Shown here piece by piece: positions 29,697 through 45,795 of a stretch of DNA of 64,000 bases. The notes below the pieces were generated by a model. It saw only the letters and a list, made by a program, of their open reading frames with translations, ran no database searches and was not told where the DNA came from. Location of the stretch: positions 648-64,647 of the forward strand of contig JBEKDQ010000001.1 in the NCBI GenBank assembly GCA_050014275.1. The letters are read 5' to 3'. The stretch comes from Desulfobaccales bacterium. GTDB lineage: Bacteria; Desulfobacterota; Desulfobaccia; Desulfobaccales; 0-14-0-80-60-11. Numbering within the stretch: the stretch's first letter is position 1; each line of letters starts with the position of its first letter. Both the position numbers and the translations under genes were made by a program.

Positions 29697-29712
29697 TGGC
29701 ATAAACATTGCC
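29697..29712 (+). promoter_or_regulatory. Sigma-54 (-24/-12) promoter of the MopB-Hdr-Mvh-like-AOR operon
   Basis: TGGCATAAACATTGCC has GG (29698-99) and GC (29710-11) 12 nt apart, a near-consensus TGGCAC-N5-TTGC. It lies 65-80 nt upstream of the first CDS in an AT-rich intergenic region. Confidence 0.55.
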
Positions 29713-29778
29713 AATGTTATCTGGTTGGAAGGGCATAACAGGAATTTTTTGGGGAAGAGTTAATGATAAAGGGTGCCT

Positions 29779-31770
29779 ATGCTTGACCACCATCCAATAA
29801 AGCGGTTCCCGGGGTCTCGCCAAGAGCAGGACTACCAGGTCAGGACCGTCTGTCAGGAATGCGCCGTCGGTTGCGGTCTGGTGGCCCATGTCAAAGACGG
29901 CCGCATCGTGGATATTCAGGGGGAAGAGGAGCACCCCATTAGCCGGGGCAGGCTTTGTGCCCGTGGGACGGCCTTTGTCCAGGGGCTGACCCTCCCCGAG
30001 CGCCTCACCCAGCCCGCCAGCCGCCAGGATCGCCGGCAGGCCTTACAGCCCCTGGATGGCTGGAAGAGCGGCCTGGATCTCCTAGCCGAGCGGCTCCGCC
30101 ACCTAAAGGAGCGGCATGGTCCCAACGCCCTTCTCATCGGTTGCGACCTGGAGGGCGGCTTGGACTTTTACCTGGGGGCCATGCGCTTCGCCCAGCTCTG
30201 GGGGACCTCCCAGGTCTTTTATCCGCTGGGCGAACCCCTGGAGCCCTGGCCCTCCGGCCTGAACAGCCCGGCGGCGTCATGTTCCGACTGGATTCACAGC
30301 CGCTGCCTATTCCTGGTGGAGGCGGACCTGGCCGCCAGCCATCCCGTGGCCTGCAGTTGGGTCCAGGAGGCCCAACGCCGTGGGGCCCGGGTAGTGGCGG
30401 CGGACGCCCGCTTTACCGGCGCCCTGGCCAAGGCTGACGAGACCCTGAGAATCAAGCCCGAACAGGGCAACCTCCTGGGTCTGGCCCTCATGAAGCTTAT
30501 CCTGGCGGAGGGCGGCCAGGACGCCGCGGCCGTTGGGGCCGGCTTCACCGAAACTTCCCAATGGCAGGCCTCCTTTGAACAGTTGTCTTTGGAAGGCGTT
30601 GAGGCGGCCCTCGGGGTCCCCTTGGAAAGACTCCAGCACCTGGCCCGGCTCCTGGCTCAGCGGGGTCCGGTCACCGTGATCACCGGTAGGGAGTTGGCCG
30701 ATTTGCCGCACCATCACATCTGGCTAACCCTGGCCACGGCCATGGGCTGGGTAGGACGACCGGGCGGGGGTTGGTATCCCGTGGATGCCGGCGCCCCGCC
30801 GCTCAAGATCCATACCTATACGGGTGAAGCCAACACCCGGCCCGAAGGCGGTCACCGCGAAATCCCACCCAAACTGGCCGAGGTGAAAAGCCGGGCCGAC
30901 CAGCCCGTACGGGCCATCATCTGTTCAGGTAATTGTTTATATGACTATTTATCGCCCTTTGGGCGGTTGACGGAACAGGTAGACCTTATCGCCCACTTCG
31001 GCTCTTTCCCCAACGCCACCTGGGAACAAGCCTCCATGACCTTCCCCGCCGCCCTCTGGGCCGAACGGGACGGCCTGTCCTTCAGCAATGACCGATCCAT
31101 ACAATGGGGCACCAAGATTGTGGAGCCTCCGGACGGGTGTCGCTCGGGCCTGGACTTCTGGATGGTGTTGGCCCGGCGCTTCGGCTGGGAGGCCCACTTT
31201 CCCTGGGCCGGCGAAGATAGCAGGGCCGATCAGGCCGCCTTCTACTCCTGGCTCATGGCGCAAAGCCCCTTAACCGCCAAGTTGCAGGTGGACCAATTAC
31301 GGAGTCTGGAACCGGGCTCTCAGATCTTCTGGCCTGTGGGCAAAACCGTTCTGCCCAACGCCAGGTCGCCCTACAAGGGCAAGATTGTCCCGCACCCGGC
31401 CCCGGCGGCCCTGGCGCCCGGTGCAGAAACCGCCGAGACGGCAGACTATCCCCTGGCCTTCGAGGCAGTCCAGATAAGCTGCCGCTCCGGGGACGCCAGC
31501 CGTTTCTGGCCCTGGACCCGGGGGCTGTCCCGGGAGGACGCCGTCCAGATCAACCCGGAAACGGCCGATCTTCTCGGCATCGAAAATGGCGACGACGTCC
31601 TGGTGGAGACCCCCCGGGGCCGTTTGGCCGGCCGGGCCTGTCTCAGCCGCGCCGTGTCCCGCTGGCTGGTGGCCTCCCCCCACGGGGTGAGCGGCCTGAA
31701 GGCCCTGGTGCACAAAACGGATCAATCCCTGGATGAAGCTCGCCATCTGCTGAAAAAATTGAGCCTATGA
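29779..31770 (+). CDS. Cytoplasmic molybdopterin (bis-PGD) oxidoreductase catalytic subunit, substrate unknown
   Basis: ~663 aa. N-terminal FeS0 motif CQECAVGCGL…GRLCARG. MopB-like core and a C-terminal beta-barrel domain (…VQINPETADLLGIENGDDVLVETPRGRL…). No twin-arginine signal. The alternative GTG start is at 29773. Confidence 0.85.
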   Translation: MLDHHPIKRFPGSRQEQDYQVRTVCQECAVGCGLVAHVKDGRIVDIQGEEEHPISRGRLCARGTAFVQGLTLPERLTQPASRQDRRQALQPLDGWKSGLDLLAERLRHLKERHGPNALLIGCDLEGGLDFYLGAMRFAQLWGTSQVFYPLGEPLEPWPSGLNSPAASCSDWIHSRCLFLVEADLAASHPVACSWVQEAQRRGARVVAADARFTGALAKADETLRIKPEQGNLLGLALMKLILAEGGQDAAAVGAGFTETSQWQASFEQLSLEGVEAALGVPLERLQHLARLLAQRGPVTVITGRELADLPHHHIWLTLATAMGWVGRPGGGWYPVDAGAPPLKIHTYTGEANTRPEGGHREIPPKLAEVKSRADQPVRAIICSGNCLYDYLSPFGRLTEQVDLIAHFGSFPNATWEQASMTFPAALWAERDGLSFSNDRSIQWGTKIVEPPDGCRSGLDFWMVLARRFGWEAHFPWAGEDSRADQAAFYSWLMAQSPLTAKLQVDQLRSLEPGSQIFWPVGKTVLPNARSPYKGKIVPHPAPAALAPGAETAETADYPLAFEAVQISCRSGDASRFWPWTRGLSREDAVQINPETADLLGIENGDDVLVETPRGRLAGRACLSRAVSRWLVASPHGVSGLKALVHKTDQSLDEARHLLKKLSL

Positions 31771-32297
31771 CCAATATGACCAAGAGAAAGAGGAATATCC
31801 TGCTGGTGGAGGCCTCCCGCTGCATTGGCTGCTTCGGCTGCGAAGCGGCCTGCAAGATGGAACACGACCTCCCCGGAGAACCCAGGCCCATCCGAGTAAT
31901 CCAGGTGGGACCCTTGGGGGAAGGCGAGGAACTGCTCATGTCCTTCCAGCCCACCACCTGTTGCCACTGCGACCGGCCGGCCTGTGTCACCGCATGCCCC
32001 ACGGGGGCCATGCAGAAGCGGGAGGATGGCATCGTCTTTTCGGACCTGGAACTCTGCATCGGCTGCCAGACCTGCGCCGTGGCCTGTCCCTTCGGCGTCC
32101 CCCATCTCAACCCGGCCACCGGCAAGATCGCCAAGTGCGACGGCTGCCGGGAACGGGTGGACCAGGGCCTGTGGCCGGCCTGCGTGCTCAAGTGCCCCAC
32201 CGAGACCTTGATCTTCGGCGGTCCGGCCCGGGTGTTGCAGGAGATCGGGACCCAAGAAGCCCTGAAGGTGGCGAAGACCTTCACCCGGGAAGAATAG
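31767..32297 (+). CDS. Four-cluster 4Fe-4S electron-transfer subunit (DmsB/PsrB/FdhB-like)
   Basis: 176 aa. Has CIGCFGCEAAC, CCHCDRPACVTACP, CIGCQTCAVACP and CDGC…CVLKCP. ATGA overlap with the upstream gene. Confidence 0.85.
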   Translation: MTNMTKRKRNILLVEASRCIGCFGCEAACKMEHDLPGEPRPIRVIQVGPLGEGEELLMSFQPTTCCHCDRPACVTACPTGAMQKREDGIVFSDLELCIGCQTCAVACPFGVPHLNPATGKIAKCDGCRERVDQGLWPACVLKCPTETLIFGGPARVLQEIGTQEALKVAKTFTREE

Positions 32298-32306
32298 GAG
32301 TCCGGT

Positions 32307-32876
32307 ATGACCAGACTGACCGGCGCGGCGGCGGAGAAGGACTTTCTCACCCAGGTCATCGAAGCCAGCGGCCAGAACTTGTTGGAGTGCCTCCAGTGCG
32401 GCAAGTGCAGCGGCGGCTGCCCCATTTCTTCAGCCGAAGTGGGTGGCCCTCGGCGCCTCATCGCCGAGATCCTTTACGGCATGAAGGACAAGGCCCTCAA
32501 GGACCCCACCTGGTGGTACTGCGTCAGCTGCGGCACCTGCATGACCCGCTGCCCCGTGGAAATCAATATGTATCGCGTGGCCACCGTGCTCTGCGAGATT
32601 GCCGAAAATGAAAAGATCAAGCCTTGCGAGCCGGATATTCACCTGTTTGAGGAGCTCTTTTTGAAATCCGTGGAGAAATACGGCCGGGCCAAGGAACTCA
32701 AGGTCGTGATGAAATTCAACCTGCGCACTCTGCGGCCCTTCAAAGACCTGGGCCAGGGGCTGAGCCTGATGCTCAAGGGGGCCATCAATCCCAAAGAGAT
32801 GTTCAAGAAGAGCCCCCCGGACAAGCGCATCGCCCGGATTTTCTCCCGGGTGCAGGAAATAGAAGCGGGAGACTAG
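32307..32876 (+). CDS. hdrC: Heterodisulfide reductase subunit C-like protein
   Basis: 189 aa with two CxxCxxCxxxCP motifs (CLQCGKCSGGCP; CVSCGTCMTRCP). Confidence 0.8.
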   Translation: MTRLTGAAAEKDFLTQVIEASGQNLLECLQCGKCSGGCPISSAEVGGPRRLIAEILYGMKDKALKDPTWWYCVSCGTCMTRCPVEINMYRVATVLCEIAENEKIKPCEPDIHLFEELFLKSVEKYGRAKELKVVMKFNLRTLRPFKDLGQGLSLMLKGAINPKEMFKKSPPDKRIARIFSRVQEIEAGD

Positions 32877-32878
32877 CC

Positions 32879-33754
32879 ATGAAAGTCAGCTACTATCCCG
32901 GGTGTTCCCTGGAAGCCACCGGCAAGCCTTATAACGACTCCACCCAGGAAGTCTGCCGGGCCCTGGGGGTGGAACTGTTAGAGGTCCCCGACTGGGCTTG
33001 CTGCGGCTCCTCCCCGGCCCTGAAGATGAACGAGCTGCTCTCTGCCGCCCTCTCGGGCGTTAACCTGGCCCTGTTGGAGAAGCAGGAACCCGCCGACGTG
33101 GTGGCCCCTTGCCCCTTCTGCTATCGCCGGTTGTTGAGCGCCCAGGACGACATGGCCCGGGACCCGGAATTGAAAAAGCAGGTCCAGGAGGCCATCGAGG
33201 CGGACCTGGCCGGAAGCCTGCAAATCCATAACCTGGTATCCTTCCTGCGGGGAAAGGTGGGCCTGGCGGCCATTACCGCCCGTCTGATCAAGCCCCTGGC
33301 GGGCCTCAAGGTCGTTCCCTTCTACGGCTGCTACATGGTCAAGCCCAAACAGGTGACCCACTGCGAAGACCCGGAAGATCCCACCGCCCTGGACGAGATC
33401 CTGGCGGCCCTGGGGGCCGAGGTCCTGGACTGGGATTTCAAGACGGAGTGTTGCGGCGCCGGCCTGTCTCTCAGCAAAACCGAGAAGGTGGTCGAGCTTT
33501 CCGGGCGCCTGGTCCGGGAAGCGGCCTATCGCGGCGCCGACGCCATCGTGGTGGCCTGCCAACTCTGCCAGGCCAACCTGGATATGCGCCAGGGGCAGAT
33601 CGGCAAGCAAGATAAGAAGGAATATAACCTCCCCATCATTTACTTCACTCAGCTCATGGGATTGGCGCTGGGCCTGGCCCCCACGGCCCTGGGCCTCAAC
33701 CATCACCTGGTCGACCCCATACGCCTGCTGGAAAAAAAGGGATTAATCGGATGA
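32879..33754 (+). CDS. hdrB: Heterodisulfide reductase subunit B-like protein (two CCG domains)
   Basis: 291 aa. Contains YYPGCS…PDWACCGSSPA and FYGCY…TECCGAG, the duplicated CCG motifs that bind noncubane FeS clusters. Confidence 0.85.
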   Translation: MKVSYYPGCSLEATGKPYNDSTQEVCRALGVELLEVPDWACCGSSPALKMNELLSAALSGVNLALLEKQEPADVVAPCPFCYRRLLSAQDDMARDPELKKQVQEAIEADLAGSLQIHNLVSFLRGKVGLAAITARLIKPLAGLKVVPFYGCYMVKPKQVTHCEDPEDPTALDEILAALGAEVLDWDFKTECCGAGLSLSKTEKVVELSGRLVREAAYRGADAIVVACQLCQANLDMRQGQIGKQDKKEYNLPIIYFTQLMGLALGLAPTALGLNHHLVDPIRLLEKKGLIG

Positions 33755-36700
33755 GTAAAAAGGTTGGCGTCTATATCTGTCACTGCGGCACCAACATCGG
33801 CGACGTGGTGGACGTGGACAAGATCGCCGAAGAAATCGGCGCCGAAGACGAAGATGTGGTGGTCTGCCGCCACTACAAATATATGTGCTCCGAGCCGGGC
33901 CAGAAGTTGATCCGGGACGACGTGGCGGAGTTGAAGCTGGACCACGTGGTGGAGGCCTCCTGCTCTCCCAAGATGCACGAGCCCACCTTCCGCAACGCCG
34001 TGTCCCAGGCCGGCATGAACCAGTATATGTTCGAGATGGTCAACATCCGGGAGCACTGCTCCTGGGTCACCGAGAACCCGGAACTGGCCACCCAAAAGGC
34101 CAAGGCCCTGATCAAGGGCGGCATCGCCCGGGTGAAGCATCATCGGCCCCTGGTCGGTTCCTGGAAACCGGTCAATCCCAAGGCCTTGGTGGTGGGCGGT
34201 GGCATCGCCGGCATCACCACGGCCCTGAAGATCGCCAAATCCGGCTACAAGGTCTACCTGGTAGAAAAGGAGGAGATCATCGGCGGCCGCATGGCCCAGT
34301 TCGACAAGACCTTCCCCACCCTGGACTGCGCCGGCTGCACCCTGACCCCCAAGACCAGCGAAGTGGGGCGACATCCCAACATCGAGATTCTGACCAAGGC
34401 GGAAGTCGTCGAGGTCAGCGGCTTCGTGGGCAATTTCAAGGTCAAGATCCGCCAGCAGCCCCGCTATGTGCGGATGGACAAATGCACCGGCTGCGGCGAC
34501 TGCCAGAAGGTCTGCCCCATCGAGGTCGACAGCAAGTTTGAGCTGGACATGGCCAAACGGCACCCCATCAGCCGGCCCTTCCCCCAGGCCATCCCCAATA
34601 CCTATTCCATTATTCGCGCCGGTTCGCCGCCCTGCCAGTCGGCCTGCCCGGCCGGCGTCAATGTGGTGGGCTATATGAACCTGGCGGGCCTGGGGAAATT
34701 CGACGAGGCCCTGGCCCTGGTGCGGGAGCGCATGCCCTTTGCCGCCTCCTGCGGCCGCATCTGCTTCCATCCCTGCGAAAGCTCCTGCAAGCGGGGCCAG
34801 ATGGACAAACCTCTGGCCATCTGCCAGACCAAGCGCTTCCTGGGTGACCAGGAACTGGCCCAGGGCACGTTCGTCCATCCGGAAAAGCAGGAAGAGCGCC
34901 CGGAGCGTATCGCCCTGGTGGGAGGCGGCCCGGCCAGCCTATCCGCCGCCTACTACCTGGCCCTCATGGGCTTCAAGCCGGTGATCTTCGAGGCCGCGCC
35001 CGAAGCCGGCGGCTGGCTGCGCTACGGCATCCCCGAATACCGCCTGCCCAAGGCCATCCTCAAGCAGGAAGTGGACAACCTGGCCTCACTGGGCGTGGAA
35101 ATCCACTACAATACCCCCATCGGGCCGGGCCGCACCATTGACAACCTGATGACCAAAGAAGGGTTCAGCGCCGTCTTCCTCGGCGTGGGGGCCCAGGACG
35201 CCCTGCGCCTGCCGGTACCCGGGGCCGAGTCTGAAGGAGTGCACTGGGGCGTCGAATATCTGCGGGATTCGGCCATGGGCAAGGTTCCCGACCTTACCGG
35301 CAAACGGATGATCATCATCGGCGGCGGTAACGTAGCCGTGGACGCGGCCCGCACCGCCGTCCGGCAGGGCGCTACGCCGGTGGCCATGATCTCCCTGGAG
35401 GCCCGGGATGAGATGCCCGCCTCGGCCTGGGAAGTGGAGGAGGCCGAACATGAAGGTGTGCATTTCGAGCATCGCTGGGGGGTCAAGCAAATCCTCAGCC
35501 AGGACGGGAAGGTGACCGGCATCGAGCTCCGGGCCGTGGAGCGGGTCTTTGACGACCAGGGTCGCTTCGCCCCCAGCTATCTGGACGATCAACTCGCCAC
35601 CCGGGACGCCGACGCAGTAATCATGGCCATCGGCCAGAAGACCAATTTGAAGTTCCTCACCCCGGAGGACGGCGTCGCCCTGACGGAGCGCGGTCTCATC
35701 CAGGTGGACCCGGATACCCTGGCCACCAGTCGGCCCGGCGTCTTCGCCGGCGGCGACTGCACCCTGGGACCGGCCTCCTTCGTTCAGGCGGTGGCCAAGG
35801 GCCGGGAGGCGGCAGAATCGATTTACTCCTACCTGGTGCACGGCGGCTTGCGGGAAGTCACCCCCAAGGAAAGGCAGGTAGCCCCGGAGATCACCGCTGA
35901 TGAGCAGCGGCGGGCCCTGCCCATTCCCCGGCAGGAGATGCCCTGCCTGACGGCCCAGGAGCGCCGGGGCGGCTTCGCCGAAGTGGATCTGGGTTTCACC
36001 GCGGAGATGGCCCAGGCCGAGGGCCAGCGCTGCATCAGTTGCTCGCTTTGCTGCCAATGCGGCGAATGCGTGCGGGCCTGCGGTCCGGGCGCCATCGACC
36101 TGAAGGAACGGGAGCGGAGCCGGGAACTGGAGGTGGGGGCTATCGTCGTCGCCACCGGCGTCGACATCTTCGATGCCCACAAGTACCCGGAATACGGCCA
36201 TGGCAAATACCCCGACGTGCTCACCAACCTGCAGTTTGAGCGCCTGTGCAACGCCGCCGGCCCCACCGGGGGCAAGGTCATCCGGCCCAGCGACGGCAAG
36301 GTGCCCGAAAGCATCGTCTTCATCCAGTGCGTGGGCTCCCGGGACCGGGCCCGGGGGGGGGAGTACTGCTCCAAGGTCTGCTGCATGGTCTCCGCCAAGC
36401 AGCTCAGTATCTTCAAGCACCACAACCGCGAGGGTAAGGCCTACGTCTTTTATATCGATAACCGAACCGGCGGCAAGGGCTATGAAGAGTTCCTGCGCCG
36501 GGCCATCGAAGAGGAAGGCGCCACCTATATCCGGGGCCGGGTGGCCAAAGTCTTCCAGGAAGGCGGCCGCCTGGTGGTCAGGGGTGAAAATTCCCTGGTG
36601 GGCGGCACCGTCGACGTGGAGGCCGACATGGTGGTCCTGGCCACCGGCCTGACGCCCCAGAAGGACTACCTCAACGTGGCCCGGGCCCTGAACCTGGCCT

Positions 36701-37119
36701 CGGACAAAGACGGCTTCTTCATCGAGCTCCACCCCAAGCTGGGCCCGGTGGAGACTCCCCTGTCCGGCATCTTCCTGGCCGGCGGCTGCCAGGGCCCCAA
36801 GGACATCCCCGAGTCGGTGGCGCAGGGCGGAGCCGCGGCTGCCGAGGCCCTGGCCCTGTTCAGTATGGGGGAAGTGGAAGTGGAGCCCACCGTGGCCCAG
36901 GCGGACAGCGCCCTGTGCACCGGCTGCAAGACCTGCCTAAGCCTCTGCGCTTACAGCGCCATCTCCTTCAGCGAAGAAGGCAAGGTGGCGGTGGTCAATG
37001 AGGCCCTCTGCCAGGGCTGCGGCACCTGCGCGGCGGCCTGCCCGGCGGCGGCCCTCAAGGTGCAGCACTTCACCCCGGACCAAATCTTTGCCCAGATCGA
37101 AGGGATGCTGGCATCATGA
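33751..37119 (+). CDS. hdrA: Giant HdrA-like flavoprotein with embedded GltD/NfnB-like NAD(P)H-binding module (HdrL-type)
   Basis: 1122 aa. HdrA-type N-terminus (VYICHCGTNIG) and an FAD GxGxxG (VVGGGIAGIT). Inserted segment CQSACPAGVNV…CGRICFHPCESSC… followed by VGGGPASLSAAYYL…GGWLRYGIPEYRLPK and IIGGGNVAVDAA, which is GltD/NfnB-like. Then the HdrA C-terminal half with ferredoxin motifs (CISCSLCCQCGEC; CTGCKTCLSLC; CQGCGTCAAACP). Confidence 0.85.
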   Translation: MSKKVGVYICHCGTNIGDVVDVDKIAEEIGAEDEDVVVCRHYKYMCSEPGQKLIRDDVAELKLDHVVEASCSPKMHEPTFRNAVSQAGMNQYMFEMVNIREHCSWVTENPELATQKAKALIKGGIARVKHHRPLVGSWKPVNPKALVVGGGIAGITTALKIAKSGYKVYLVEKEEIIGGRMAQFDKTFPTLDCAGCTLTPKTSEVGRHPNIEILTKAEVVEVSGFVGNFKVKIRQQPRYVRMDKCTGCGDCQKVCPIEVDSKFELDMAKRHPISRPFPQAIPNTYSIIRAGSPPCQSACPAGVNVVGYMNLAGLGKFDEALALVRERMPFAASCGRICFHPCESSCKRGQMDKPLAICQTKRFLGDQELAQGTFVHPEKQEERPERIALVGGGPASLSAAYYLALMGFKPVIFEAAPEAGGWLRYGIPEYRLPKAILKQEVDNLASLGVEIHYNTPIGPGRTIDNLMTKEGFSAVFLGVGAQDALRLPVPGAESEGVHWGVEYLRDSAMGKVPDLTGKRMIIIGGGNVAVDAARTAVRQGATPVAMISLEARDEMPASAWEVEEAEHEGVHFEHRWGVKQILSQDGKVTGIELRAVERVFDDQGRFAPSYLDDQLATRDADAVIMAIGQKTNLKFLTPEDGVALTERGLIQVDPDTLATSRPGVFAGGDCTLGPASFVQAVAKGREAAESIYSYLVHGGLREVTPKERQVAPEITADEQRRALPIPRQEMPCLTAQERRGGFAEVDLGFTAEMAQAEGQRCISCSLCCQCGECVRACGPGAIDLKERERSRELEVGAIVVATGVDIFDAHKYPEYGHGKYPDVLTNLQFERLCNAAGPTGGKVIRPSDGKVPESIVFIQCVGSRDRARGGEYCSKVCCMVSAKQLSIFKHHNREGKAYVFYIDNRTGGKGYEEFLRRAIEEEGATYIRGRVAKVFQEGGRLVVRGENSLVGGTVDVEADMVVLATGLTPQKDYLNVARALNLASDKDGFFIELHPKLGPVETPLSGIFLAGGCQGPKDIPESVAQGGAAAAEALALFSMGEVEVEPTVAQADSALCTGCKTCLSLCAYSAISFSEEGKVAVVNEALCQGCGTCAAACPAAALKVQHFTPDQIFAQIEGMLAS

Positions 37120-37535
37120 GCGACTTTGAACCCAAGATCATCGCCTTTCTCTGTAACTGGTGCTCTTACGTGGCCGCGGACGCCGCCGGGGTCTCCCGCT
37201 TCGTCCAGAAGCCCAACGTCCGGGTGATCCGGGTGGCGTGCTCCGGCATGGTGGACCCGAGCTACATCCTCAAGGCCTTCGCCCAGGGGGCGGACGGCGT
37301 CCTGGTGGGCGGCTGCTGGCCGGGGGACTGCCACTACATCGCCGGCAATCACAAGGCCATGCGCCGGGCCCCACTCCTGAAAAAACTGCTTAGCGAAATG
37401 GGCGTGGAGGAAGGGCGCTTCCGCCTGCAATGGATCGCCGCTTCCGAACCCGGCCCCTATGCCAAGACCATCAATGAAATGACTGAAGTGATTCGCAAAC
37501 TAGGTCCGTTTCCCCTGAAAAGGAGCGCTGCGTGA
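37116..37535 (+). CDS. mvhD: MvhD/FlpD-like [2Fe-2S] electron-transfer protein
   Basis: 139 aa. Has IIAFLCNWCSY…RVACSG…GGCWPGDCHY, the MvhD signature. ATGA overlap with hdrA. Confidence 0.85.
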   Translation: MSDFEPKIIAFLCNWCSYVAADAAGVSRFVQKPNVRVIRVACSGMVDPSYILKAFAQGADGVLVGGCWPGDCHYIAGNHKAMRRAPLLKKLLSEMGVEEGRFRLQWIAASEPGPYAKTINEMTEVIRKLGPFPLKRSAA

Positions 37536-38539
37536 GCCGGGCGGAGAAGAAAAAGAAGCTGGCCGTCTATACCGCCACGGGATGCCGCGCCTGTGAGCAG
37601 GCCCTCTTGGACCTGAACTACGAAGTCAATGACCTGAGCCGCTTTGCCGAGATAGTCTTCTGGCCTTATATATTGGGCTCGACGTGGGCCGCCCTGGACG
37701 AGACCGAGGTGGATGTCGCCTTTTTCGCCGGGGCCATCCGCACTGCGGCGGATCGCCAGGCGGCCCTGAAGCTCCGGGAAAAGTCCCGGTTGCTGGTGGC
37801 CGTAGGGGCCTGCGCCGCCTTCGGGGGCCTGCCGGGGTTGGCCAATCTGGCGGCGCCGGCGCCGGAAGTCCCCGGCGCCGCCAGGTCCAACGGGGAACCG
37901 GCCCTTCCCGGGATCGAACCCCGGGTCTCGGCTCTGTCCCTGATCGTGCCGGTCGATTATGTCGTCCCAGGCTGCGTCCCGACCCAGAACCTCCTCTGGG
38001 CCGCCATGCTGGCCCTGGTCTGCCAGGGCGCCTCACCGGCCCGGCTCTCTTATGCCGCCGCCCGGCTGCCGGCGGCGCTGGCCGAGGCCATCGCCGCCGG
38101 CGTCCTGCCGCCCCGGGGCAGCACCTTTGCTGGCGAAAAGTCGGTCTGCGCCAGTTGCTCCCGGATCAAGGAGGAAAAGAAGTTTGGGACCTGCAAGCGC
38201 CCTTACCAGGAATACCAGGAAACCGGCCGCTGCCTGTTGGAGCAGGGTGTGATCTGCCAGGGCGTGGCCACCCAGGAAGGCTGCGGCGGCCTCTGCACCG
38301 GGGTGGGGATTCCCTGCCGGGGCTGCTTCGGCAAGGCCCCGGCCATCTTCGACCCCGGCGCCAAGATGGTGTCGGCCATCAGCTCCACCTTCGACTCCAG
38401 CAACCCCCAGGAGATCGCGGCGTTGGTGGAGAACTTCGTAGACCTGGCGGGCACCTTTTACCGCTACGTGTTGCCGAGCCAATGCGCCCTTTTGGTGACG
38501 CCCAGCAAGGTTGAGAAAGATGCAGACGATAACCTTTGA
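37532..38539 (+). CDS. Group-3 [NiFe]-hydrogenase small-subunit-like FeS protein (MvhG-like)
   Basis: 335 aa. Has the proximal-cluster pattern TGCRAC…GACAAFGG…VPGCVP and a C-terminal Cys-rich region (CASCS…C…C…CQG…CGGLC…CRGC). GTG start overlaps the mvhD stop. Confidence 0.75.
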   Translation: MSRAEKKKKLAVYTATGCRACEQALLDLNYEVNDLSRFAEIVFWPYILGSTWAALDETEVDVAFFAGAIRTAADRQAALKLREKSRLLVAVGACAAFGGLPGLANLAAPAPEVPGAARSNGEPALPGIEPRVSALSLIVPVDYVVPGCVPTQNLLWAAMLALVCQGASPARLSYAAARLPAALAEAIAAGVLPPRGSTFAGEKSVCASCSRIKEEKKFGTCKRPYQEYQETGRCLLEQGVICQGVATQEGCGGLCTGVGIPCRGCFGKAPAIFDPGAKMVSAISSTFDSSNPQEIAALVENFVDLAGTFYRYVLPSQCALLVTPSKVEKDADDNL

Positions 38540-39824
38540 TTCATTGCGCTGGCAGGAACAACCGGCCCGGGTCACCATCACGGTCAACGGTGGGCCGCCC
38601 CAGGTCTACTTTCAAAGAATCGCCCCCCGGGAAGTGGCGGCCCTGTGCCAGGGACGGCCGGTGGAGGAGTTGCCCCGGATCCTGGCCATCCTGTCTCCGG
38701 CCCATCATCTCTGCGCCGCCCGGGCCCTGGACCGGCTCTTTGGGGTGGAGCCGCCGCCGCTGGCCCTGAATATGCGGGAGGCCCTGCGCCAGGCCTTATT
38801 TTACCGGCATCACTTGCAGAAATTCTATTTTCTGCTCACTTCGCTGGAGAATCCCTTTATGGATTTCTGGTCCTCCGAGGCCCGCCGCGGGCTGCACACC
38901 ATCCCGCACCAGCTTTTTGACGACCTCCGGCGCCACGTGTCGCTGGCCCAGGAGGCGGCCGGCATCCTGGGGGGGCGGGCTGACCATCCGGTGACCGCGG
39001 TGGCCGGCGGGGTGAGCCGTTACCTGAAAGAGGACAACTACCCGCGGCTGGCCGAAATCGCTGCGGCCTGCCGGAACTATGGCCTGCGGCTGGCCGAGTT
39101 CCTCCGGGAAGAGGTCTTGGCTGAGGGGAAAATGGCGGATCTCCTGGAGCTGGCAACCGTGCCCCTGGCCACCCTGGCCCTGGGGCCCGAACCCGACAGT
39201 CTGATCTTGAGGGACGTTGCGGGCCAGGAAACGGCCCGTTTCGCCGCCGCTGCCCTCTTCGAAAAAATCGGGCTGCATCATGAGACCTGGACCTATGAAC
39301 CTTTTGCCTTCCTCCGGGATAAGGGCTGGAAAGACTTGGGCGCCGAGCCGATGGACAGCCTCTTCTTCGTCGGCCCCCTGGCCCGCCTGAACAATGGTGC
39401 GCCCCTGGCCGCGCCTTTGGCCGAGGCTGAGCGCCAACGGCTGATTGCGGCCCTGGGGCCCTTCCCTCATTTCAGTGTGGCGGCGGCCTATTGGGCCTTG
39501 CTGGTGGAACTGCTGGAGGCGGCGGAGCACCTGGTCGTCCTGTGCGAGGTGGAAAAGCTGACCGGTCCGGCCCTGCGCACCATTCCCGCCGGCCCGGGCC
39601 GGGCAGGCCATGCCGCCCTGGAGGCGCCCGAGGGCCTCATCTACCACCATTTTCAAGCCGATGAGCACGGCCTGGTCCGGGAGGCCCAAGTCCTGGAGGC
39701 GGCTACGGAAAATAATGGACTTTTCGGACTCCTGACCCGGCAGACGGTGGAGGCTGCCCTGGCCCGGAAACAACCCTGGGAGGAGACCAAAGAGAGGATC
39801 GAATTGAGCCTGCTGCCTTTTTAA
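38520..39824 (+). CDS. [NiFe]-hydrogenase large-subunit homolog lacking all Ni-Fe cysteine ligands (pseudo-hydrogenase subunit)
   Basis: ~434 aa. Retains the large-subunit landmarks EELPRIL…, GGRADHPVTAVAGG and LEAPEGLIYHHF…ATENN. The N-terminal RxCGxCxxxH position reads AILSPAHH. The C-terminus ends …KERIELSLLPF where DPCxxCxxH is expected. Only four isolated Cys, none in a CxxC pair. Confidence 0.7.
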   Translation: MQTITFDSLRWQEQPARVTITVNGGPPQVYFQRIAPREVAALCQGRPVEELPRILAILSPAHHLCAARALDRLFGVEPPPLALNMREALRQALFYRHHLQKFYFLLTSLENPFMDFWSSEARRGLHTIPHQLFDDLRRHVSLAQEAAGILGGRADHPVTAVAGGVSRYLKEDNYPRLAEIAAACRNYGLRLAEFLREEVLAEGKMADLLELATVPLATLALGPEPDSLILRDVAGQETARFAAAALFEKIGLHHETWTYEPFAFLRDKGWKDLGAEPMDSLFFVGPLARLNNGAPLAAPLAEAERQRLIAALGPFPHFSVAAAYWALLVELLEAAEHLVVLCEVEKLTGPALRTIPAGPGRAGHAALEAPEGLIYHHFQADEHGLVREAQVLEAATENNGLFGLLTRQTVEAALARKQPWEETKERIELSLLPF

Positions 39825-39867
39825 TCGAATCGTCTCGGGCCTGCAGGCCTCAGGAGGACTAGCGTTC

Positions 39868-40359
39868 ATGTTGAAGACCTTGATTGTGGATGCCCAGAAA
39901 TGTTCCGGGTGCCGTTCTTGCGAGAACTACTGCGCCCTCAAGCACGGGGGCTTATGCAACCCCGCCAGGGGTAGGATTCACGTGGTCAAGTGGGAACGGG
40001 AAGGGATCTTCGTGCCCATCAACTGCCGGCGCTGCGAGAAGCCGGCCTGCGAGCAGGTCTGTCCCAAGCACGCCACCTACCGCAACTTCGACACCGGCGC
40101 CCTGGAGGTGGATGCGGCCCGCTGCATCGGCTGCCTGAACTGCGTCTCCGCCTGTCCCTTCGGGGCCACCTTCGTGGACCCGGAGAGCGGCGAGGTCCTG
40201 AAGTGCGACCTGTGCGACGGCGACCCCACCTGCGTCAAGGTCTGCCCCACCGGGGCCTTGACTTTTGAAGACCTCTCCAAAGAGGCTTACCTCAAGCTGA
40301 TCGCCTGTGCGGACCAGATTCCCCTGCTGGTCCGGGAGGCTATCGGGAGGCAGGAATAA
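39868..40359 (+). CDS. Multi-cluster 4Fe-4S ferredoxin-like subunit (AorA/BamC-like) paired with AOR copy 2
   Basis: 163 aa. Has CSGCRSCENYC, CRRCEKPACEQVCP, CIGCLNCVSACP and CDLCDG…CVKVCP. Its stop overlaps the start of the next gene (TAATG). Confidence 0.85.
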   Translation: MLKTLIVDAQKCSGCRSCENYCALKHGGLCNPARGRIHVVKWEREGIFVPINCRRCEKPACEQVCPKHATYRNFDTGALEVDAARCIGCLNCVSACPFGATFVDPESGEVLKCDLCDGDPTCVKVCPTGALTFEDLSKEAYLKLIACADQIPLLVREAIGRQE

Positions 40360-42248
40360 TGTACGGCTGGGTTGGCAAGATACTTAAAGTCGATCTTACC
40401 GAAGGCAAGATCAGCACGGAGCCCACCGAGGCTTACGTGGACGAATACATTGGCGGCCGCGGCCTGGGGGTCAAGCTGATCTACGATAACTATAAGCCCG
40501 GCACCGGCGCCCTGGAGCCGGGCAATCCGCTGCTGTTCAATACCGGGCCGCTCTCCGGCACCGCTATGCCCGGTTCGGGCCGGGTGGACGTCACGGCCCT
40601 GTCCCCCATGAGCAACCTCAGGGCCAAGTCCAACTTCGGAGCCTATTGGGGCCCGGAGCTCAAATTCAACGGCTTCGACCATCTGTTCATCACCGGCAAG
40701 GCCGAGAAACCCTGCTACCTCTGGATCCACGACGGCAAGGTGGAGATTCGCCCCGCCGAACACCTCTGGGGTCAGGATACCCACGAGACCCAGAAGCTGA
40801 TCCAGCAAGAGCTGGGCGACCCGGAGATCAAGGTGGTCTGCATCGGCCCGGCGGGGGAAAACCTGGTGCGCTTCGCCTGTCTGATCAGCGAGACTGGCGA
40901 CGCCGCCGGACGCACCGGTATGGGGGCGGTGATGGGCTCCAAGAACCTGAAGGCCGTGGCGGTACGCGGCACCGGCAGCGTGCGGGTGGCCCACCCCGAG
41001 AAGTTCCTGGAACTCTCCATCCAGGTGAACCGAGAAGTCCGGGAAAGCCCCGCCTACCAGGAGCTCTCCTCCTGGGGCGTGGCCCGGGGCGTGCAGATGA
41101 TGTATCAGATGGGCTTCTTCCCGGTGGGCTACTTCGAAGACGTCTGCGTTGACGAAATCTGCCAGAAATATGCGGCCCCCGCCTACGTCGAGCAGCATCA
41201 GCTCAAGAACGTCGGCTGCTTCAACTGCCCGGGACGCTGCATGAACTTCCTGTCGGTGCCAGGCTTGGGCAAAGGCGTGACCTCCTGCGAGCCCTTCAGC
41301 GGCTTCACCGGCGCCGTCTGGAACCTGGACATGGACACCTTCTGGGAGGCGACCCTCCTGGTCAATAAGCTGGGCATCGACTGCACCGAGACCTCGGCCT
41401 CCATCGGCCTGCTGATGGAGCTCTTCCACGAAGGCATCATCACCGAAAAGGAGACGGACGGCATCCCTATGGTCCGGGGCAGCAAGGAGGCCATCCTCAC
41501 CACCATCCGCAAGATCGCCGCCCGGGAGGGCTACGGCGAGTTGCTGGCCCAGGGCCAGAAGGCCTTCACCAGCCAGATCGGCCCGGCGGCGGTGGAGAAG
41601 TTGGACCTGGTCAAGGGCCTGGCGCCCCATGCCTATGAATTCCGCTCCTTCCACGGCACCGCCCTGATGCAGGCCGTGGGCCACCGGGGCGACCCGCTGC
41701 CGCTGCGGGGCAGCCTCCTGGAAGTGGACTGGAACCACGCCCCGGAATGGTTCCAGCAAGTGGCTAAAGAACAGTTCGGCAGTGAAGAGGCGGCCATCCC
41801 CACCTCTTACGAGGGCAAGGCCATGTCCGCGGTGATCTCCGAACACCTGGAGCGGGTGCCAGACAACCTGGGCATCTGCAAGTGGATCTACGGCCTCTTC
41901 GCCTATCAAGATGTCAACATGGCCCTCCGCCTGTTCAACCTGGCCACCGGCAAGGACTGGGATATGGCGCAACTCCTTAAGGTCTCCGAAAAGGTGCGCA
42001 ACCTGGAGCGCATGTTCGACGTGCGCCAGGGCCTGACCCGCAAGGACGACGATCTGCCCAAGAAGTTCTTTGAGGTGCCCCTCTCCAAGGGCAAATTTGC
42101 CGGGGAGGTCCTGGACCGGGCCAAGTTCGAAAAGATGAAGGACGAGTACTATGAGATCCGGGGCTGGAATAAAGAAACCGGCATCCCCACCCGGGAGAAG
42201 CTGGTGGAGCTGGGCCTAGAGGCGGTGGCCGACGAGGTGCTGAACTAG
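40359..42248 (+). CDS. Tungsten aldehyde:ferredoxin oxidoreductase-family protein (AOR copy 2, long form)
   Basis: 629 aa. AOR N-domain (GKILKVDLTEGKIS…GGRGLG), then …GRTGMGAVMGSKNLKA… and pterin-binding domains. Clearly divergent from copy 1 and ~50 aa longer. Confidence 0.9.
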   Translation: MYGWVGKILKVDLTEGKISTEPTEAYVDEYIGGRGLGVKLIYDNYKPGTGALEPGNPLLFNTGPLSGTAMPGSGRVDVTALSPMSNLRAKSNFGAYWGPELKFNGFDHLFITGKAEKPCYLWIHDGKVEIRPAEHLWGQDTHETQKLIQQELGDPEIKVVCIGPAGENLVRFACLISETGDAAGRTGMGAVMGSKNLKAVAVRGTGSVRVAHPEKFLELSIQVNREVRESPAYQELSSWGVARGVQMMYQMGFFPVGYFEDVCVDEICQKYAAPAYVEQHQLKNVGCFNCPGRCMNFLSVPGLGKGVTSCEPFSGFTGAVWNLDMDTFWEATLLVNKLGIDCTETSASIGLLMELFHEGIITEKETDGIPMVRGSKEAILTTIRKIAAREGYGELLAQGQKAFTSQIGPAAVEKLDLVKGLAPHAYEFRSFHGTALMQAVGHRGDPLPLRGSLLEVDWNHAPEWFQQVAKEQFGSEEAAIPTSYEGKAMSAVISEHLERVPDNLGICKWIYGLFAYQDVNMALRLFNLATGKDWDMAQLLKVSEKVRNLERMFDVRQGLTRKDDDLPKKFFEVPLSKGKFAGEVLDRAKFEKMKDEYYEIRGWNKETGIPTREKLVELGLEAVADEVLN

Positions 42249-42416
42249 CGGGCTGTTGAAAAACTCCTTAAAAAGAGGAGTTCTTGTAGGGGCGACTCGC
42301 TGAGCCGCCCGGGCGACCCAAGGTTTGCTGAAACACCCGCTAGGTTTTAACAGCCTGTTAAAGAAGAATTCGCAGGCTGGCTTCAATAATGGAAAGGTTC
42401 TCACGGGGTCATAAAG

Positions 42417-43244
42417 ATGTCCCTTCAGGCGATAGCCAGGCGGGCGATGCGAGGCGGCCGGGAATTCCTGCTGGCGCCGATGGCGAGCCTGCAGGCCTGG
42501 GCAGCGGCACGGAGTCTCAGTCTGAGCCGGGCCCAGGAACTGGCCCTGGAGGCGGGCATCTTCCCCGAAGTCCTGGAGCGCAATTTCCCCACCCTGACCC
42601 CGGCGCAACAGCTCACCTTATGGCGGGGCAGCGCCCTGGTGGTGGGGCTGGGGGGCCTGGGGGGCTGCCAGGCGATGCTGCTGGCCAGGGCCGGGGTGGG
42701 CCGCCTCTACCTGGCGGACGGCGACGCCTTCACTCCCTCCAACCTCAACCGCCAGTTGCTGGCCACCGCCCTCACCCTGGGGCAGAACAAGGCCGTGGTC
42801 ACCGCCCGCCATCTCCGGGAGATCAACGAAGGCCTCCTCGTTGAGGCCCTCCCGGAATTTCTGGATCAGGAGCGGCTGCGGGAGGTTCTGCCCGCGGTGC
42901 GGGTGCTGCTGGACGCCCTGGATACCCTTAGGGCCCGGCGGGACCTGATCGCCGCGGCCCAACAGGCCGGGGTGCCGGTGGTGCACGGCGCGGTGAACGG
43001 CGTCTTTGGCCAGGTGACCACCATCATGCCCCAGGATCGCGCGGAGTTTAACCCTTATCCGCTCTTGGAAGCCCCGGGGCCGGAGACCCCTCCCGGGGTG
43101 CTGGCCCCCACTGTCACCCTGACCGCCAGCCTCCAGACCTTGGAGGCCATCCGCCTGCTGCTGGGAAAAGAGCCCCACTACCGGGGCCGCCTGGCCCACT
43201 TCGACGGCGATACCGGCCGCCTGGAGATCTTGCCGCTGGGTTGA
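42417..43244 (+). CDS. ThiF/MoeB/HesA-family E1-like adenylyltransferase
   Basis: 275 aa. Has VVGLGGLGGCQAMLLARAGVGRLYLADGDAFTPSNLNRQ, i.e. the nucleotide-binding GxGxxG plus the SNLNRQ motif. No rhodanese domain. Confidence 0.8.
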   Translation: MSLQAIARRAMRGGREFLLAPMASLQAWAAARSLSLSRAQELALEAGIFPEVLERNFPTLTPAQQLTLWRGSALVVGLGGLGGCQAMLLARAGVGRLYLADGDAFTPSNLNRQLLATALTLGQNKAVVTARHLREINEGLLVEALPEFLDQERLREVLPAVRVLLDALDTLRARRDLIAAAQQAGVPVVHGAVNGVFGQVTTIMPQDRAEFNPYPLLEAPGPETPPGVLAPTVTLTASLQTLEAIRLLLGKEPHYRGRLAHFDGDTGRLEILPLG

Positions 43245-44198
43245 TGTCTTGGGAAGGGGGCCAGGTCTTCCACAGGCGAGACGCCTGTGCCACTGGCCCT
43301 GTCCCCCTCCCTAACAGGTTGGCCGAAAGTCTAATCGATGAAGGGGCCATCGACCTGGTGGGCCGCATCATGCACTTCGCCAAAGCACCAAAGGCCAAGA
43401 AGGGGCGCCTGGGCTTGCGGAGGAAGACCCCAATTGGCCATGGACTGAGATAGATTATCAATTTGAAATAATTCAAAATATCCTGATATGGGGTTCGTTG
43501 GGGCCAAAACGGGAAGCGCCAGCGCCGGCTGGAGGCAAGGCCCACCTTCGGAAGAAGCATCCTTCGGTGCCGATTAATTATTTATAATTATAATCAATAC
43601 TTAACCAATACCACCTCTGATTTAACAATCTATCGGCGGTGGGAGGTGTTGGCGCAGATTTTGCTTAATAGAAATCAGCCATTCTATCTTTCGACGGAGG
43701 AAGGGGGTAGGTAACCACAAGCGCGGTGATCCTCTGTATTTGGGGATTTTCTTTGATTCATCTGTGTCAAAGAGCCATCGATCCCAAAATGGAGGAAAGA
43801 CATGATCCCCCGGCATGCTCCTGGTCTAGTCGCTCATTTTGTGGGTCGTGGTGGGTCTGTGGATTCCGGCCTTCTCCCTTATGCTGACCGGTGCCCTGCT
43901 GCTTTGCCATTGAGCTTGAGGTTTTTCTGTCTTGGTTTAGAAAGGTTGATTAACCCCCAGCTTCCGGATCGGAAACGGGACCAAGGGCCCAGGGGTCTCC
44001 CGCCTGCTACCACGTCTTACTGCAGGCGCTTTCACAGGTGAACAGGAAACCCCCAGGTTCTACTTCACCAGAGGAAAGGGGGCTGATACGGCTGCACTAT
44101 GGCTGCACAACCCATTAGTCAAGGGGCAGTGTCGCAAGGATTGGATTGACTCGTGAAGGCAAATTTCTTCACCCAAAGCCATGAGGAGGCATAAAGCT

Positions 44199-45707: not shown

Positions 45708-45795
45708 GGTAAATCATTTCACTGGGGAGGGGGGATCCCCTCCCCAAGCTTGTTAATGAAGATTATATTTATATTTAGAAAAAGGTGCGGGTCAC

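Follow-up and report, generated by a model that had tools for sequence, protein, structure and literature searches.

A predicted sigma-54-dependent operon of Desulfobacterota combines an HdrABC-MvhD core and a nested NAD(P)H module with a NiFe-less hydrogenase remnant and two pterin-family subunits

Electron bifurcation of the heterodisulfide reductase (Hdr) type is a route by which strict anaerobes reach very low redox potentials without adenosine triphosphate (ATP), and few combinations of its modules have been characterized. In the Hdr-type systems whose structures have been solved, an MvhD-like adaptor serves as the electron input, and of the two exits, the high-potential one is the HdrBC-like part and the low-potential one the inserted ferredoxin domain. 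In the Mvh-Hdr-Fmd group of methanogens, i.e., Mvh-Hdr, (Mvh-Hdr)2-Fmd4, and Fdh-Hdr-Fmd, polyferredoxins link Hdr to the pterin enzyme. In the class II benzoyl-CoA reductase (BCRII) of Geobacter metallireducens, BamBCDEFGHI, bifurcation drives the reaction at a tungsten (W) site, and the structure leads from the low-potential exit through a polyferredoxin to the Cys-ligated W site of a subunit of the aldehyde oxidoreductase (AOR) family. For the HdrL loci and FlxABCD-HdrABC of D. autotrophicum HRM2, S. fumaroxidans, and D. vulgaris, the role that has been proposed is to bifurcate or confurcate electrons in a process linked to NAD(P)H, with a disulfide of the DsrC type as the acceptor. Furthermore, the WorLS pair of WorABCSL is plugged into a bifurcation module of the Bfu/HydABC type, and the five classes of WOR proposed in 2026 comprise no Hdr/Mvh partner apart from BCRII. 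Here, we describe a further system, which is outside these five classes. It is encoded by ten genes at positions 29773-42248 on the forward strand of a 64,000-nt stretch of DNA from a Desulfobaccales bacterium (contig JBEKDQ010000001.1 of assembly GCA_050014275.1, positions 648 to 64,647; hereafter, the window), and its products, as judged from their sequences, most likely form a soluble multi-subunit flavin-based bifurcating (or confurcating) complex of the Hdr type, built on an HdrABC-MvhD core.

Eleven forward-strand open reading frames (ORFs) listed in an earlier reading of this DNA (hereafter, the sequence-only reading) are all present between 29773 and 43244 in the sizes given there, and the family assigned to each is borne out by Pfam. 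The first ten are tightly packed in the order MopB, a four-cluster FeS subunit, HdrC, HdrB, HdrA (HdrL type), MvhD, an MvhG-like and an MvhA-like subunit, ferredoxin, and an AOR-family protein; the second and ninth products are both of the Fer4_11 type with four clusters in Pfam. The junctions from HdrB to HdrA, HdrA to MvhD, MvhD to MvhG, and MopB to the FeS subunit are overlaps of 4 nt apiece, and the ferredoxin and AOR-family genes overlap by 1 nt. Gaps of 9 nt and 2 nt precede the HdrC and HdrB genes, respectively, and a gap of 43 nt separates the MvhA-like gene from the ferredoxin gene. The overlap of the MvhG-like and MvhA-like genes amounts to 20-29 nt, depending on whether ATG at 38520 or TTG at 38511 is the start codon of the latter. 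The eleventh ORF, a ThiF-like gene, follows the AOR-family gene after 168 nt.

A sigma-54-type -24/-12 promoter element, TGGCATaaacaTTGC, is located at 29697-29711 (+), 62 nt 5′ of the earliest possible start codon of the operon. The element carries the GG-N10-GC core in a TGGCAC-N5-TTGCW-like context at a suitable distance; the window contains three copies of the pattern TGGCAY-N5-TTGC, for which 0.37 would be expected, and an equivalent -24/-12 element lies 5′ of the MopB orthologue in 17 of the 20 related loci with upstream sequence. The single strong promoter of the sequence-only reading is thus upheld. No convincing internal terminator or sigma-70 promoter was found in a scan of the operon, in which sites of both kinds are fewer than in shuffled sequence (9 terminator-like sites observed against 14.9 expected); the splitting of the operon by such signals had been named as an objection. 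Because the genes overlap or nearly abut and internal signals do not rise above chance, the ten genes are predicted to form one sigma-54-dependent transcription unit. An inverted-repeat search 5′ of the promoter yielded no convincing activator site, and neither an Rfam scan of the whole window nor a permissive scan of the 590-nt leader detected a riboswitch (e.g., for the molybdenum cofactor) or any other RNA family. The operon is richer in G+C (62-66% at 30001-42000) than the immediately flanking 2-kb bins (52-56%), with values of up to 60-62% elsewhere in the window. One copy each of the ten subunits adds up to approximately 455 kDa. The complex would be cytoplasmic, because neither a Tat motif nor a membrane helix was detected in any of the ten products.

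The Hdr core is complete in terms of its cofactor sites; here and below, the invariance of Cys residues was scored in 13 orthologues per subunit. HdrC (32307-32876, +; Pfam Fer4_8/17 and NCBIfam matches) has eight invariant Cys for two [4Fe-4S] clusters. HdrB (32879-33754, +) comprises two CCG domains (Pfam, E 8e-27) with ten invariant Cys in two CCG patterns (C9, 41, 42, 78, 81, 151, 191, 192, 227, and 230), as expected for two non-cubane clusters. HdrA (33751-37119, +) has 1122 residues and aligns with HdrA of Mvh-Hdr (5odc_A, E 2e-203) in two blocks, residues 4-288 with 5-289 and residues 766-1120 with 292-650. Since the two blocks span residues 5-650 of 5odc_A, HdrA is considered complete; its own Cys are invariant, and full-length flavin adenine dinucleotide (FAD)-binding HdrA is thus encoded together with HdrB and HdrC that keep all their cluster Cys, as in HdrABC. 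Pfam places Pyr_redox_2 and Fer4_20 inside the HdrA frame. The intervening 477 residues (~289-765; 34615-36045, +) form a GltD/NfnB-like insert that lies between the two CxxCxxCxxxCP motifs of one HdrA ferredoxin fold, which we take to be the inserted ferredoxin domain of HdrA known from the 2017 structure. The insert resembles NfnB, GltD, dihydropyrimidine dehydrogenase, and the NfnB-like part of StnA, and carries a Fer4_20 domain for two [4Fe-4S] clusters (conserved Cys at 295-358), an FAD site, and an NAD(P)H site. The NAD(P)H-type module previously proposed to reside in HdrA is therefore confirmed by alignment as a GltD/NfnB insert. In the papers on D. autotrophicum and S. fumaroxidans, an HdrA-glutamate synthase fusion is referred to as HdrL and is always followed by MvhD. 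The protein described here likewise unites HdrA domains and a GltD-type NAD(P)H region in one polypeptide, and its gene precedes that of the MvhD adaptor (37116-37535, +; Pfam FlpD, E 2e-50), which has five invariant Cys and a [2Fe-2S] site.

The next two genes are derived from those of a [NiFe]-hydrogenase. The MvhG-like small subunit (37532-38539, +; Pfam Oxidored_q6, NCBIfam VhuG E 7e-45) has 13 invariant Cys, enough for proximal, medial, and distal clusters; thus, in Cys content and in Pfam and NCBIfam matches, this subunit and MvhD agree with the small subunit and the [2Fe-2S] adaptor of MvhADG. The MvhA-like large subunit (38511-39824, +; start probably at 38520) matches NiFeSe_Hases of Pfam below threshold and aligns with MvhA (5odc_F) over residues 25-417 (E 8e-37), but has PRILAILSPAHHL at the position of PRICGICQVAHHL in MvhA. 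Here RILAILSPAHH stands in for RxCGxCxxxH, and the protein ends in ...SLLPF ahead of the C-terminal DPCxxCxxH; it therefore lacks the ligands by which the large subunit of a group 3c [NiFe]-hydrogenase is recognized. The ligand motifs are absent from all 22 aligned members of the family, which agrees with the earlier statement that the hydrogenase-like pair cannot bind Ni-Fe. The description of the subunit as cysteine-less holds for the ligand positions but not literally, as four non-conserved Cys are present in the window protein, none of them at an NiFe-ligand position; the family has no conserved Cys at all. The same scan also retrieved relatives of about 30% identity, which have RICGVC and C..CATH and are ordinary MvhA proteins; the NiFe-less clade thus occurs in this operon only. 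The protein was modelled with AlphaFold (predicted local distance difference test 86.6, predicted template modelling score 0.90), and the model best matches MvhA 5odc_F at a template modelling score of 0.81. The ratio of nonsynonymous to synonymous substitution rates (dN/dS) against the closest locus is 0.24, equal to that of HdrB (0.24) and close to that of MopB (0.22), and decay to pseudogenes is ruled out by these values for both the MvhA-like protein and MopB. On sequence and model, the MvhA-like subunit is a maintained, folded, non-hydrogenase protein.

The operon ends with a ferredoxin and an AOR/WOR-family W(Mo)-pterin subunit. The ferredoxin (39868-40359, +) has 16 invariant cluster Cys for four [4Fe-4S] clusters and is of the AorA/WorS type, matching AorA (8c0z_C) at E 3e-35, WorS (9mqx_E) at 6e-29, and BamC at 1.5e-17. 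The module had been called BamBC-like; this is appropriate for the large subunit in that it bears a BamB-type Cys, and inappropriate for the small one, which is AorA/WorS-like with 16 Cys and four clusters. The W subunit (40359-42248, +) matches AFOR_N (E 1e-85) and AFOR_C (7e-79) of Pfam, and its C287, C290, C294, and C507 are invariant. It scores 347-286 bits against WorL, P. furiosus AOR, and AorB, and 241 bits against BamB. Aldehyde oxidoreductases are characterized by a conserved second shell (Thr243, Glu313, Tyr427, and His448) and by the absence of a protein ligand to W, whereas a Cys ligand to the metal is found only in the BamB and YdhV clades, which perform non-aldehyde chemistry (PMC12096430). 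In the W subunit of the operon, the equivalents of Glu313 and Tyr427 are kept, position 243 is Val or Ala, and position 448 is Pro within an invariant RGDPLPLR stretch. Furthermore, GVTSCEP(F/W)SGFTG contains an invariant Cys in place of Tyr312. This residue, Cys310, falls on Cys322 of BamB when the two proteins are aligned without gaps from the CxxCxxxC motif; both Cys are located 16 residues past the third FeS Cys, and Cys310 is followed by Glu where BamB has Phe323. Thus, the fold and the [4Fe-4S] Cys are those of AOR sensu stricto, but the second shell and the lack of a protein ligand are not; of the second-shell residues by whose absence the BamB type is distinguished, Thr243 and His448 are lost, and equivalents of Glu313 and Tyr427 are present. 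These features suggest that the W subunit is not a canonical aldehyde oxidoreductase and represents a distinct Cys-bearing clade, with the Cys at the predicted metal-ligand position. Membership in the YdhV clade was considered and ruled out: YdhV Cys336 is 22, not 16, residues past the FeS motif, and BLASTP aligned the W subunit with E. coli YdhV only at the N-terminal third (35% identity) and the C-terminus.

At the opposite end, the first gene encodes an atypical subunit of the MopB family of Mo/W-bis(pyranopterin guanine dinucleotide) proteins (29773-31770, +; the start is probably ATG at 29779). Pfam recognizes Molybdop_Fe4S4, Molybdopterin, and Molydop_binding, the four Cys of the FS0 [4Fe-4S] cluster (C27, C30, C34, and C62) are invariant, and the family motifs ..HP, D.R.T, KAD, FPA..WAERDG..F.NDR, and GIENGD are kept. 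In formate dehydrogenase, the metal site comprises the pair Sec/Cys140-His141 together with Arg333 (FdhH numbering). In both single-sequence and profile alignments, the Cys-His pair of FdhF (7qv7_S) and Fdh (7bkb_D) falls on a poorly conserved Pro/Leu stretch of MopB, and MopB has lost the RGQNNVQG loop, which bears the substrate Arg. Between FS0 and the pterin, the connecting residue is Lys or Arg in ten orthologues and Met in three. Formate dehydrogenase activity is ruled out by this active-site alignment, and MopB scores 164 on TIGR01591, the cut-off of which is 666; weak NCBIfam matches are to QrcB (“molybdopterin-binding-like”) and NuoG. MopB may be either a relic or a non-canonical enzyme, as far as its sequence indicates. 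Its partner is a DmsB/PsrB-type beta subunit (31767-32297, +; Pfam Fer4_11) with 16 invariant Cys for four [4Fe-4S] clusters, the best PDB match of which is the B subunit of polysulfide reductase (2vpw_B, E 1e-31).

The distribution of the operon was assessed by using the MvhA-like protein as a query, which retrieved a family of ~435-aa proteins, nearly all from uncultured Thermodesulfobacteriota. A one-genome-per-species scan with alignment of this family yielded 80 loci (numbered with the prefix L below), and the gene content of related loci was scored by tblastn with the window proteins. The full ten-gene order is present in 13 loci from several orders of Thermodesulfobacteriota, and approximately 12 loci truncated by contig ends, including one in an Anaeromyxobacter metagenome-assembled genome (MAG), show the same order as far as the contig reaches; fortuitous adjacency, the other objection raised beforehand, is not in keeping with this conservation. 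Of the eleven genes proposed to co-occur, ten are therefore retained and the ThiF-like gene is not, being found in none of these loci. The hosts include Desulfobaccales, Desulfatiglandales, Desulfomonilaceae, Syntrophobacter sp. SbD1 (Syntrophobacteraceae), Syntrophaceae, Desulfobacterales, the Olavius Delta-3 symbiont, and others; they are uncultured sulfate-reducing or syntrophic bacteria, and their habitats are sediments, peat, and groundwater as well as a worm symbiosis. A Desulfobaccales MAG encodes a protein 100% identical to the AOR-family protein of the window, and no cultured organism is found among the 120 best relatives, all of which have at least 70% identity.

The subunits are unequally conserved. 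Mean pairwise identity is lowest in MopB (0.47) and the MvhA-like subunit (0.48) and highest in the ferredoxin (0.76) and the W subunit (0.77). The invariant core across loci comprises MopB, the beta subunit, HdrCBA(L), MvhD, the MvhG-like and MvhA-like subunits, and the ferredoxin, and the terminal modules appear from gene content to be exchangeable. In one Desulfobacterales locus (L025, 4642-7683), a different HdrA-like protein of 1013 aa replaces HdrC-HdrB-HdrA(L), and MopB, the beta subunit, MvhD, MvhG, the MvhA-like subunit, the ferredoxin, and the W subunit are retained. In three Syntrophobacteraceae loci (L017, L021, and L027), a gene for a ~130-aa biotin/lipoyl-attachment-like protein is inserted after the ferredoxin gene. 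In 18 related loci, two tandem genes for ~225-aa siroheme sulfite/nitrite-reductase-like proteins are located 3′ of the W subunit gene, often with an SCO4226-like gene on the 5′ side and an ABM-domain gene on the 3′ side; intact copies have NIR_SIR_ferr and NIR_SIR domains with whole siroheme-[4Fe-4S] Cys motifs (e.g., L003, 6465-7829). In the window, a C-terminal remnant of 36 codons is left at 43307-43414 (+; tblastn 46% identity, E 2e-4). The remnant is shared with L001, the proteins of which are 89-98% identical, and nothing more of these genes is left in either locus. The ThiF/MoeB-like gene (42417-43244, +; Pfam ThiF), which stands where the sulfite-reductase-like genes were lost, is missing at the same place in L001 and has no match in any related locus; its membership in the operon is ruled out, as it is specific to this genome.

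When the operon is compared with the described systems, the Mvh-Hdr-Fmd group comes closest by its list of parts, and BCRII by its logic; Hdr-type bifurcating supercomplexes as such are already known. HdrA, HdrB, HdrC, MvhD, MvhG, the MvhA fold, a polyferredoxin connector, and a MopB-family protein are common to the operon and the methanogen complexes. However, the large subunit of the window has no NiFe ligands, HdrA contains the 477-residue NAD(P)H module, MopB has no Cys/Sec ligand and is not FwdB-like, and an AOR-family W subunit is added. Furthermore, the heterodisulfide of coenzymes M and B is not expected in bacterial hosts. BCRII likewise combines an AOR-family Cys-bearing subunit and its FeS partner with HdrA-, HdrBC-, and MvhD-like modules. 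By contrast with BamBCDEFGHI, the operon has no HydABC-like BamGHI input but the GltD insert for NAD(P)H, a single HdrA instead of the fused double HdrA of BamE, separate and intact HdrB and HdrC instead of BamD with its altered distal cluster, a ferredoxin with four clusters instead of the three of BamC, a W subunit that keeps the Glu313 and Tyr427 equivalents, and, in addition, the hydrogenase remnant and the MopB pair. Judged by these features, the system appears to fall outside the definitions of both Mvh-Hdr-Fmd and BCRII, in agreement with the earlier view that it matches neither HdrABC-MvhADG nor Bam.

The HdrL loci share HdrL and MvhD with the window. The HdrABC/HdrL cluster of S. fumaroxidans, however, has no MvhAG, MopB, or AOR-family gene, and FlxABCD-HdrABC shares only HdrABC and an MvhD-like protein, as Flx-type genes are absent from the operon. 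A figure legend published in 2009 lists hdrL, mvhD, mvhG, mvhA, an Fe/S protein, and “Aor5” for a locus of D. autotrophicum HRM2; the legend itself offers no analysis, and the locus is likened to the operon by that gene list. In the papers on HdrL-containing loci, neither the function nor the sequence of such a cluster is analyzed. A literature search for the gene combination retrieved no paper that describes it, this legend being the only trace; a proteogenomics paper on D. multivorans and a paper on the benzene degrader ORM2a matched by keyword, but describe other clusters. All ten proteins score below the cut-offs of NCBIfam, and the designation of the system as uncharacterized is sound. 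WorL/WorS (9mqx) and AorB/AorA (8c0z) of WorABCSL and AorABC are nearest in sequence to the W subunit and ferredoxin of the window, whereas the module into which they are plugged is not of the Hdr type, their W has no protein ligand, and all four second-shell residues are kept. The reuse of catalytic folds as scaffolds is also exemplified by NuoD/NuoB and NuoG of complex I, QrcB, and StnA. As in NuoD/NuoB, a large-subunit fold without NiFe stands beside a small subunit with a proximal cluster; unlike in these scaffolds, the predicted complex is soluble, the MvhG-like subunit keeps three clusters, and MopB keeps many motifs of the pterin family. The new features are the clade-wide NiFe-less Mvh remnant, the HdrA-nested NAD(P)H module wired to two pterin modules, and the third Cys-bearing clade of the AOR/WOR family. 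Overall, the interpretation given in the sequence-only reading is supported, every element of it that could be checked having survived.

The cofactor inventory and its conservation are read from the sequences, whereas the assembly of the subunits and the path of the electrons are entirely what we infer from them and from the characterized analogues. In the preferred model, to which we assign a probability of approximately 0.45, the HdrA flavin would be the branching point, and electrons of NAD(P)H would be exchanged through the nested GltD module. HdrBC would provide the high-potential exit to a thiol/disulfide acceptor, e.g., DsrC or a low-molecular-weight heterodisulfide. The hydrogenase remnant would no longer make or use H2 and would instead act as an FeS wire and scaffold, so that electrons could pass from MvhD through the MvhG clusters and then the four-cluster ferredoxin before reaching the Cys-ligated W subunit. 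This subunit would, by analogy with BamB of BCRII, be the low-potential catalytic terminal and perform a difficult reduction or the reverse oxidation, with a carboxylate/aldehyde-type couple as the first candidate. For the MopB pair, two roles are conceivable, one as a further pterin site of a non-canonical kind and the other as a structural relic that bears FeS clusters. The redox potentials are approximately -580 mV for acid/aldehyde, -140 mV for the heterodisulfide, and -320 mV for NAD(P)H. As the mean of the two acceptor couples is approximately -360 mV and thus near NAD(P)H, a reversible reaction of NAD(P)H with disulfide plus carboxylate would be energetically balanced.

Several observations weigh against this model. 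The evidence that the products assemble and bifurcate electrons is indirect. The NAD(P)H module is located in the output domain of HdrA, so that the direction of the MvhD arm would be inverted relative to that in the known Hdr systems. Overall, the W subunit resembles AOR sensu stricto more than BamB (347 against 241 bits), and it keeps the equivalents of Glu313 and Tyr427. It is also missing from five loci (L012, L021, L026, L027, and L030) and truncated in another (L002), while the four-cluster ferredoxin is always retained, including in the loci without a W subunit; therefore, the W subunit is not the sole catalytic terminal. The sulfite-reductase-like pair, present in most relatives, has a role that the model does not explain. 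Finally, the neighbouring genes for an Fe-alcohol dehydrogenase (Fe-ADH), a canonical AOR, and a SatP-type channel, which are described below, suit an oxidative role in alcohol or aldehyde metabolism equally well.

This last point leads to the strongest competitor, which we consider a minority view with perhaps half the weight of the preferred model: the same complex would operate in the opposite direction, with the W subunit oxidizing an aldehyde-type donor and ADH-derived NAD(P)H entering the GltD module, and the electrons would converge on HdrA and leave via HdrBC to a DsrC-like disulfide and possibly via the MopB arm. Such a complex would be a functional analogue of FlxABCD-HdrABC plus an AOR in the alcohol oxidation of sulfate reducers, and Flx-Hdr has been described as an NADH dehydrogenase/heterodisulfide reductase of ethanol metabolism. 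The pairing of Fe-ADH with a PAS kinase, the second AOR-family gene, the SatP/YaaH channel at the promoter, and the NtrC-type activator by the ADH gene are in its favour, as are the kept Glu313 and Tyr427 equivalents, the best matches of the W subunit to aldehyde-oxidizing enzymes, and the MvhD side being the input in known Hdr complexes. However, a donor at approximately -580 mV reduces NAD(P)+ or a disulfide without bifurcation, so the Hdr architecture would be wasteful. The Cys at the metal position and the loss of Thr243 and His448 also speak against standard aldehyde oxidation, a canonical AOR is already encoded nearby, and the W subunit is absent from five loci. We regard it as unlikely that the MopB pair is instead the real low-potential output, with the Mvh remnant, ferredoxin, and W subunit serving as the electron-input module. 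The gene order does parallel bamBCDEFGHI (pterin pair, HdrBC-like, HdrA-like, MvhD-like, and input module), no locus that extends far enough lacks MopB or its beta subunit, whereas the W subunit can be missing, and many family motifs as well as purifying selection are retained in MopB. Yet no residue is conserved at its metal-ligand position, the RGQNNVQG loop is absent, three orthologues have Met for the Lys between FS0 and pterin, the conservation of MopB is the lowest of all subunits (mean identity 0.47), and gene order is weak evidence for wiring. Cofactor-free MopB relics also exist, as QrcB illustrates by its NCBIfam name; NuoG and StnA are further examples.

A bolder reading, which we hold to be about as improbable as a MopB output, regards the two “dead” subunits as new active sites, with the ligand-free MopB and the Cys-ligated W subunit at the two ends of a stacked-flavin machine that reduces an unactivated substrate without ATP. 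The pocket of the MvhA-like subunit, which lies beside a kept proximal cluster as in NuoD/NuoB, could then accommodate an organic substrate or cofactor with redox activity, potentials beyond approximately -600 mV could be reached by the NAD(P)H and HdrA flavins in series, and the substrates would be a free carboxylate, an aromatic compound, or an otherwise inert compound. Slightly less credible still is the absence of any single complex, with three separate enzymes merely co-transcribed and co-regulated, namely the pair of MopB and beta subunit, an HdrABC-MvhD linked to NAD(P)H, and a pterin enzyme of the WorLS type. This would account for the W subunit and the sulfite-reductase-like genes coming and going between loci and for the different HdrA-like protein that L025 has in place of HdrCBA, but the NiFe-less MvhG/MvhA-like pair has no conceivable stand-alone function and its clade occurs only in this operon, translational coupling extends across most junctions, and the gene order is constant across bacterial orders. 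The prospect that the operon is a dearomatizing Bam system in disguise is very slight. The BamB-type Cys at identical spacing from the FeS motif and the Hdr-like and MvhD-like partners point in that direction, and some host lineages include degraders of aromatic compounds, namely Syntrophaceae, Desulfatiglandales, and Desulfosarcinaceae. On the other side stand the missing BamGHI module, an HdrA that is not a fused double HdrA, an HdrB in which both non-cubane sites are complete, unlike in BamD, four rather than three clusters in the ferredoxin, and a W subunit that scores far lower against BamB than against AORs and has Glu at the position of BamB Phe323.

If the complex is assembled as in the preferred model, it would be a target for the enzymology of a new tungsten-dependent low-potential reaction and a natural case of catalytic subunits recycled as scaffolds, in which a hydrogenase was turned into wiring. 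Were the two “dead” subunits new active sites instead, the operon would represent, after BCRII, the second natural case of hierarchically coupled bifurcation modules, with a different chemistry. For annotation, the labels “F420-non-reducing hydrogenase,” “formate dehydrogenase-like,” and “aldehyde ferredoxin oxidoreductase” carried by these genes in Desulfobacterota are functionally misleading.

The genes around the operon recur in related loci. The recurrent neighbours are a FIST sensor with a PAS hybrid kinase, a canonical second AOR-family protein (AOR2), LarB, LarC, Fe-ADH with a PAS kinase, an Amidohydro_2 protein, and radical-SAM/SPASM proteins; in the window, their copies are located upstream of the operon and are partly inverted. 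The FIST-domain sensor and the PAS hybrid histidine kinase/receiver (20558-23704, +), identified by Pfam and by clustering of flanking ORFs, stand beside the operon in nine loci, and a conserved 200-aa protein with no Pfam match (19886-20524) often accompanies their genes. AOR2 (583 aa; 18006-19757) has the canonical residues (Thr243, Glu-Tyr-Glu, Tyr427, and His448-type) and no ligand Cys, and orthologues of 71-73% identity are encoded near the operon in L008, L029, and L031. Directly 5′ of this canonical AOR gene, LarE-, LarB-, and LarC-like genes for synthesis of the nickel-pincer nucleotide cofactor are found at 14814-17925, and LarB and LarC are near the operon also in L011, L017, L023, and L024; no user enzyme of the LarA type was identified.

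As regards regulation, genes for Fe-ADH, a PAS-HisKA kinase, and an NtrC-type sigma-54 activator stand in a row at 5976-9763, and the pair of Fe-ADH and kinase adjoins the operon in L011 and L024. The activator (8432-9763), located approximately 20 kb from the operon promoter and beside the PAS kinase and Fe-ADH genes, is a candidate regulator of the operon. The ABM-domain gene, which elsewhere lies downstream on the operon strand, is detached in the window (25016-25369, -) and has its own -24/-12 match, TGGCACTAATATTGC, at 25482-25496 (-), 113 nt 5′ of the gene; such a promoter match of its own is found in none of 13 loci elsewhere. A detached ABM gene with its own -24/-12 match fits a common sigma-54 regulon. 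The ABM-domain gene is followed by MoaA (23707-24765, -).

Closer to the operon, the reverse strand at 26969-29182 encodes an Amidohydro_2-family protein and a carboxylate channel of the GPR1/FUN34/YaaH (SatP) type, the gene for the channel being divergent from the operon promoter. Homologues of the Amidohydro_2 protein are encoded 2-5 kb 3′ of the operon in L004, L018, L025, and L030. Downstream of the operon, two DUF362 proteins and an Mrp/NUBPL-type P-loop ATPase are encoded at 44181-47785; L001 has the same trio 3′ of its operon, and L030 likewise has a DUF362 gene.

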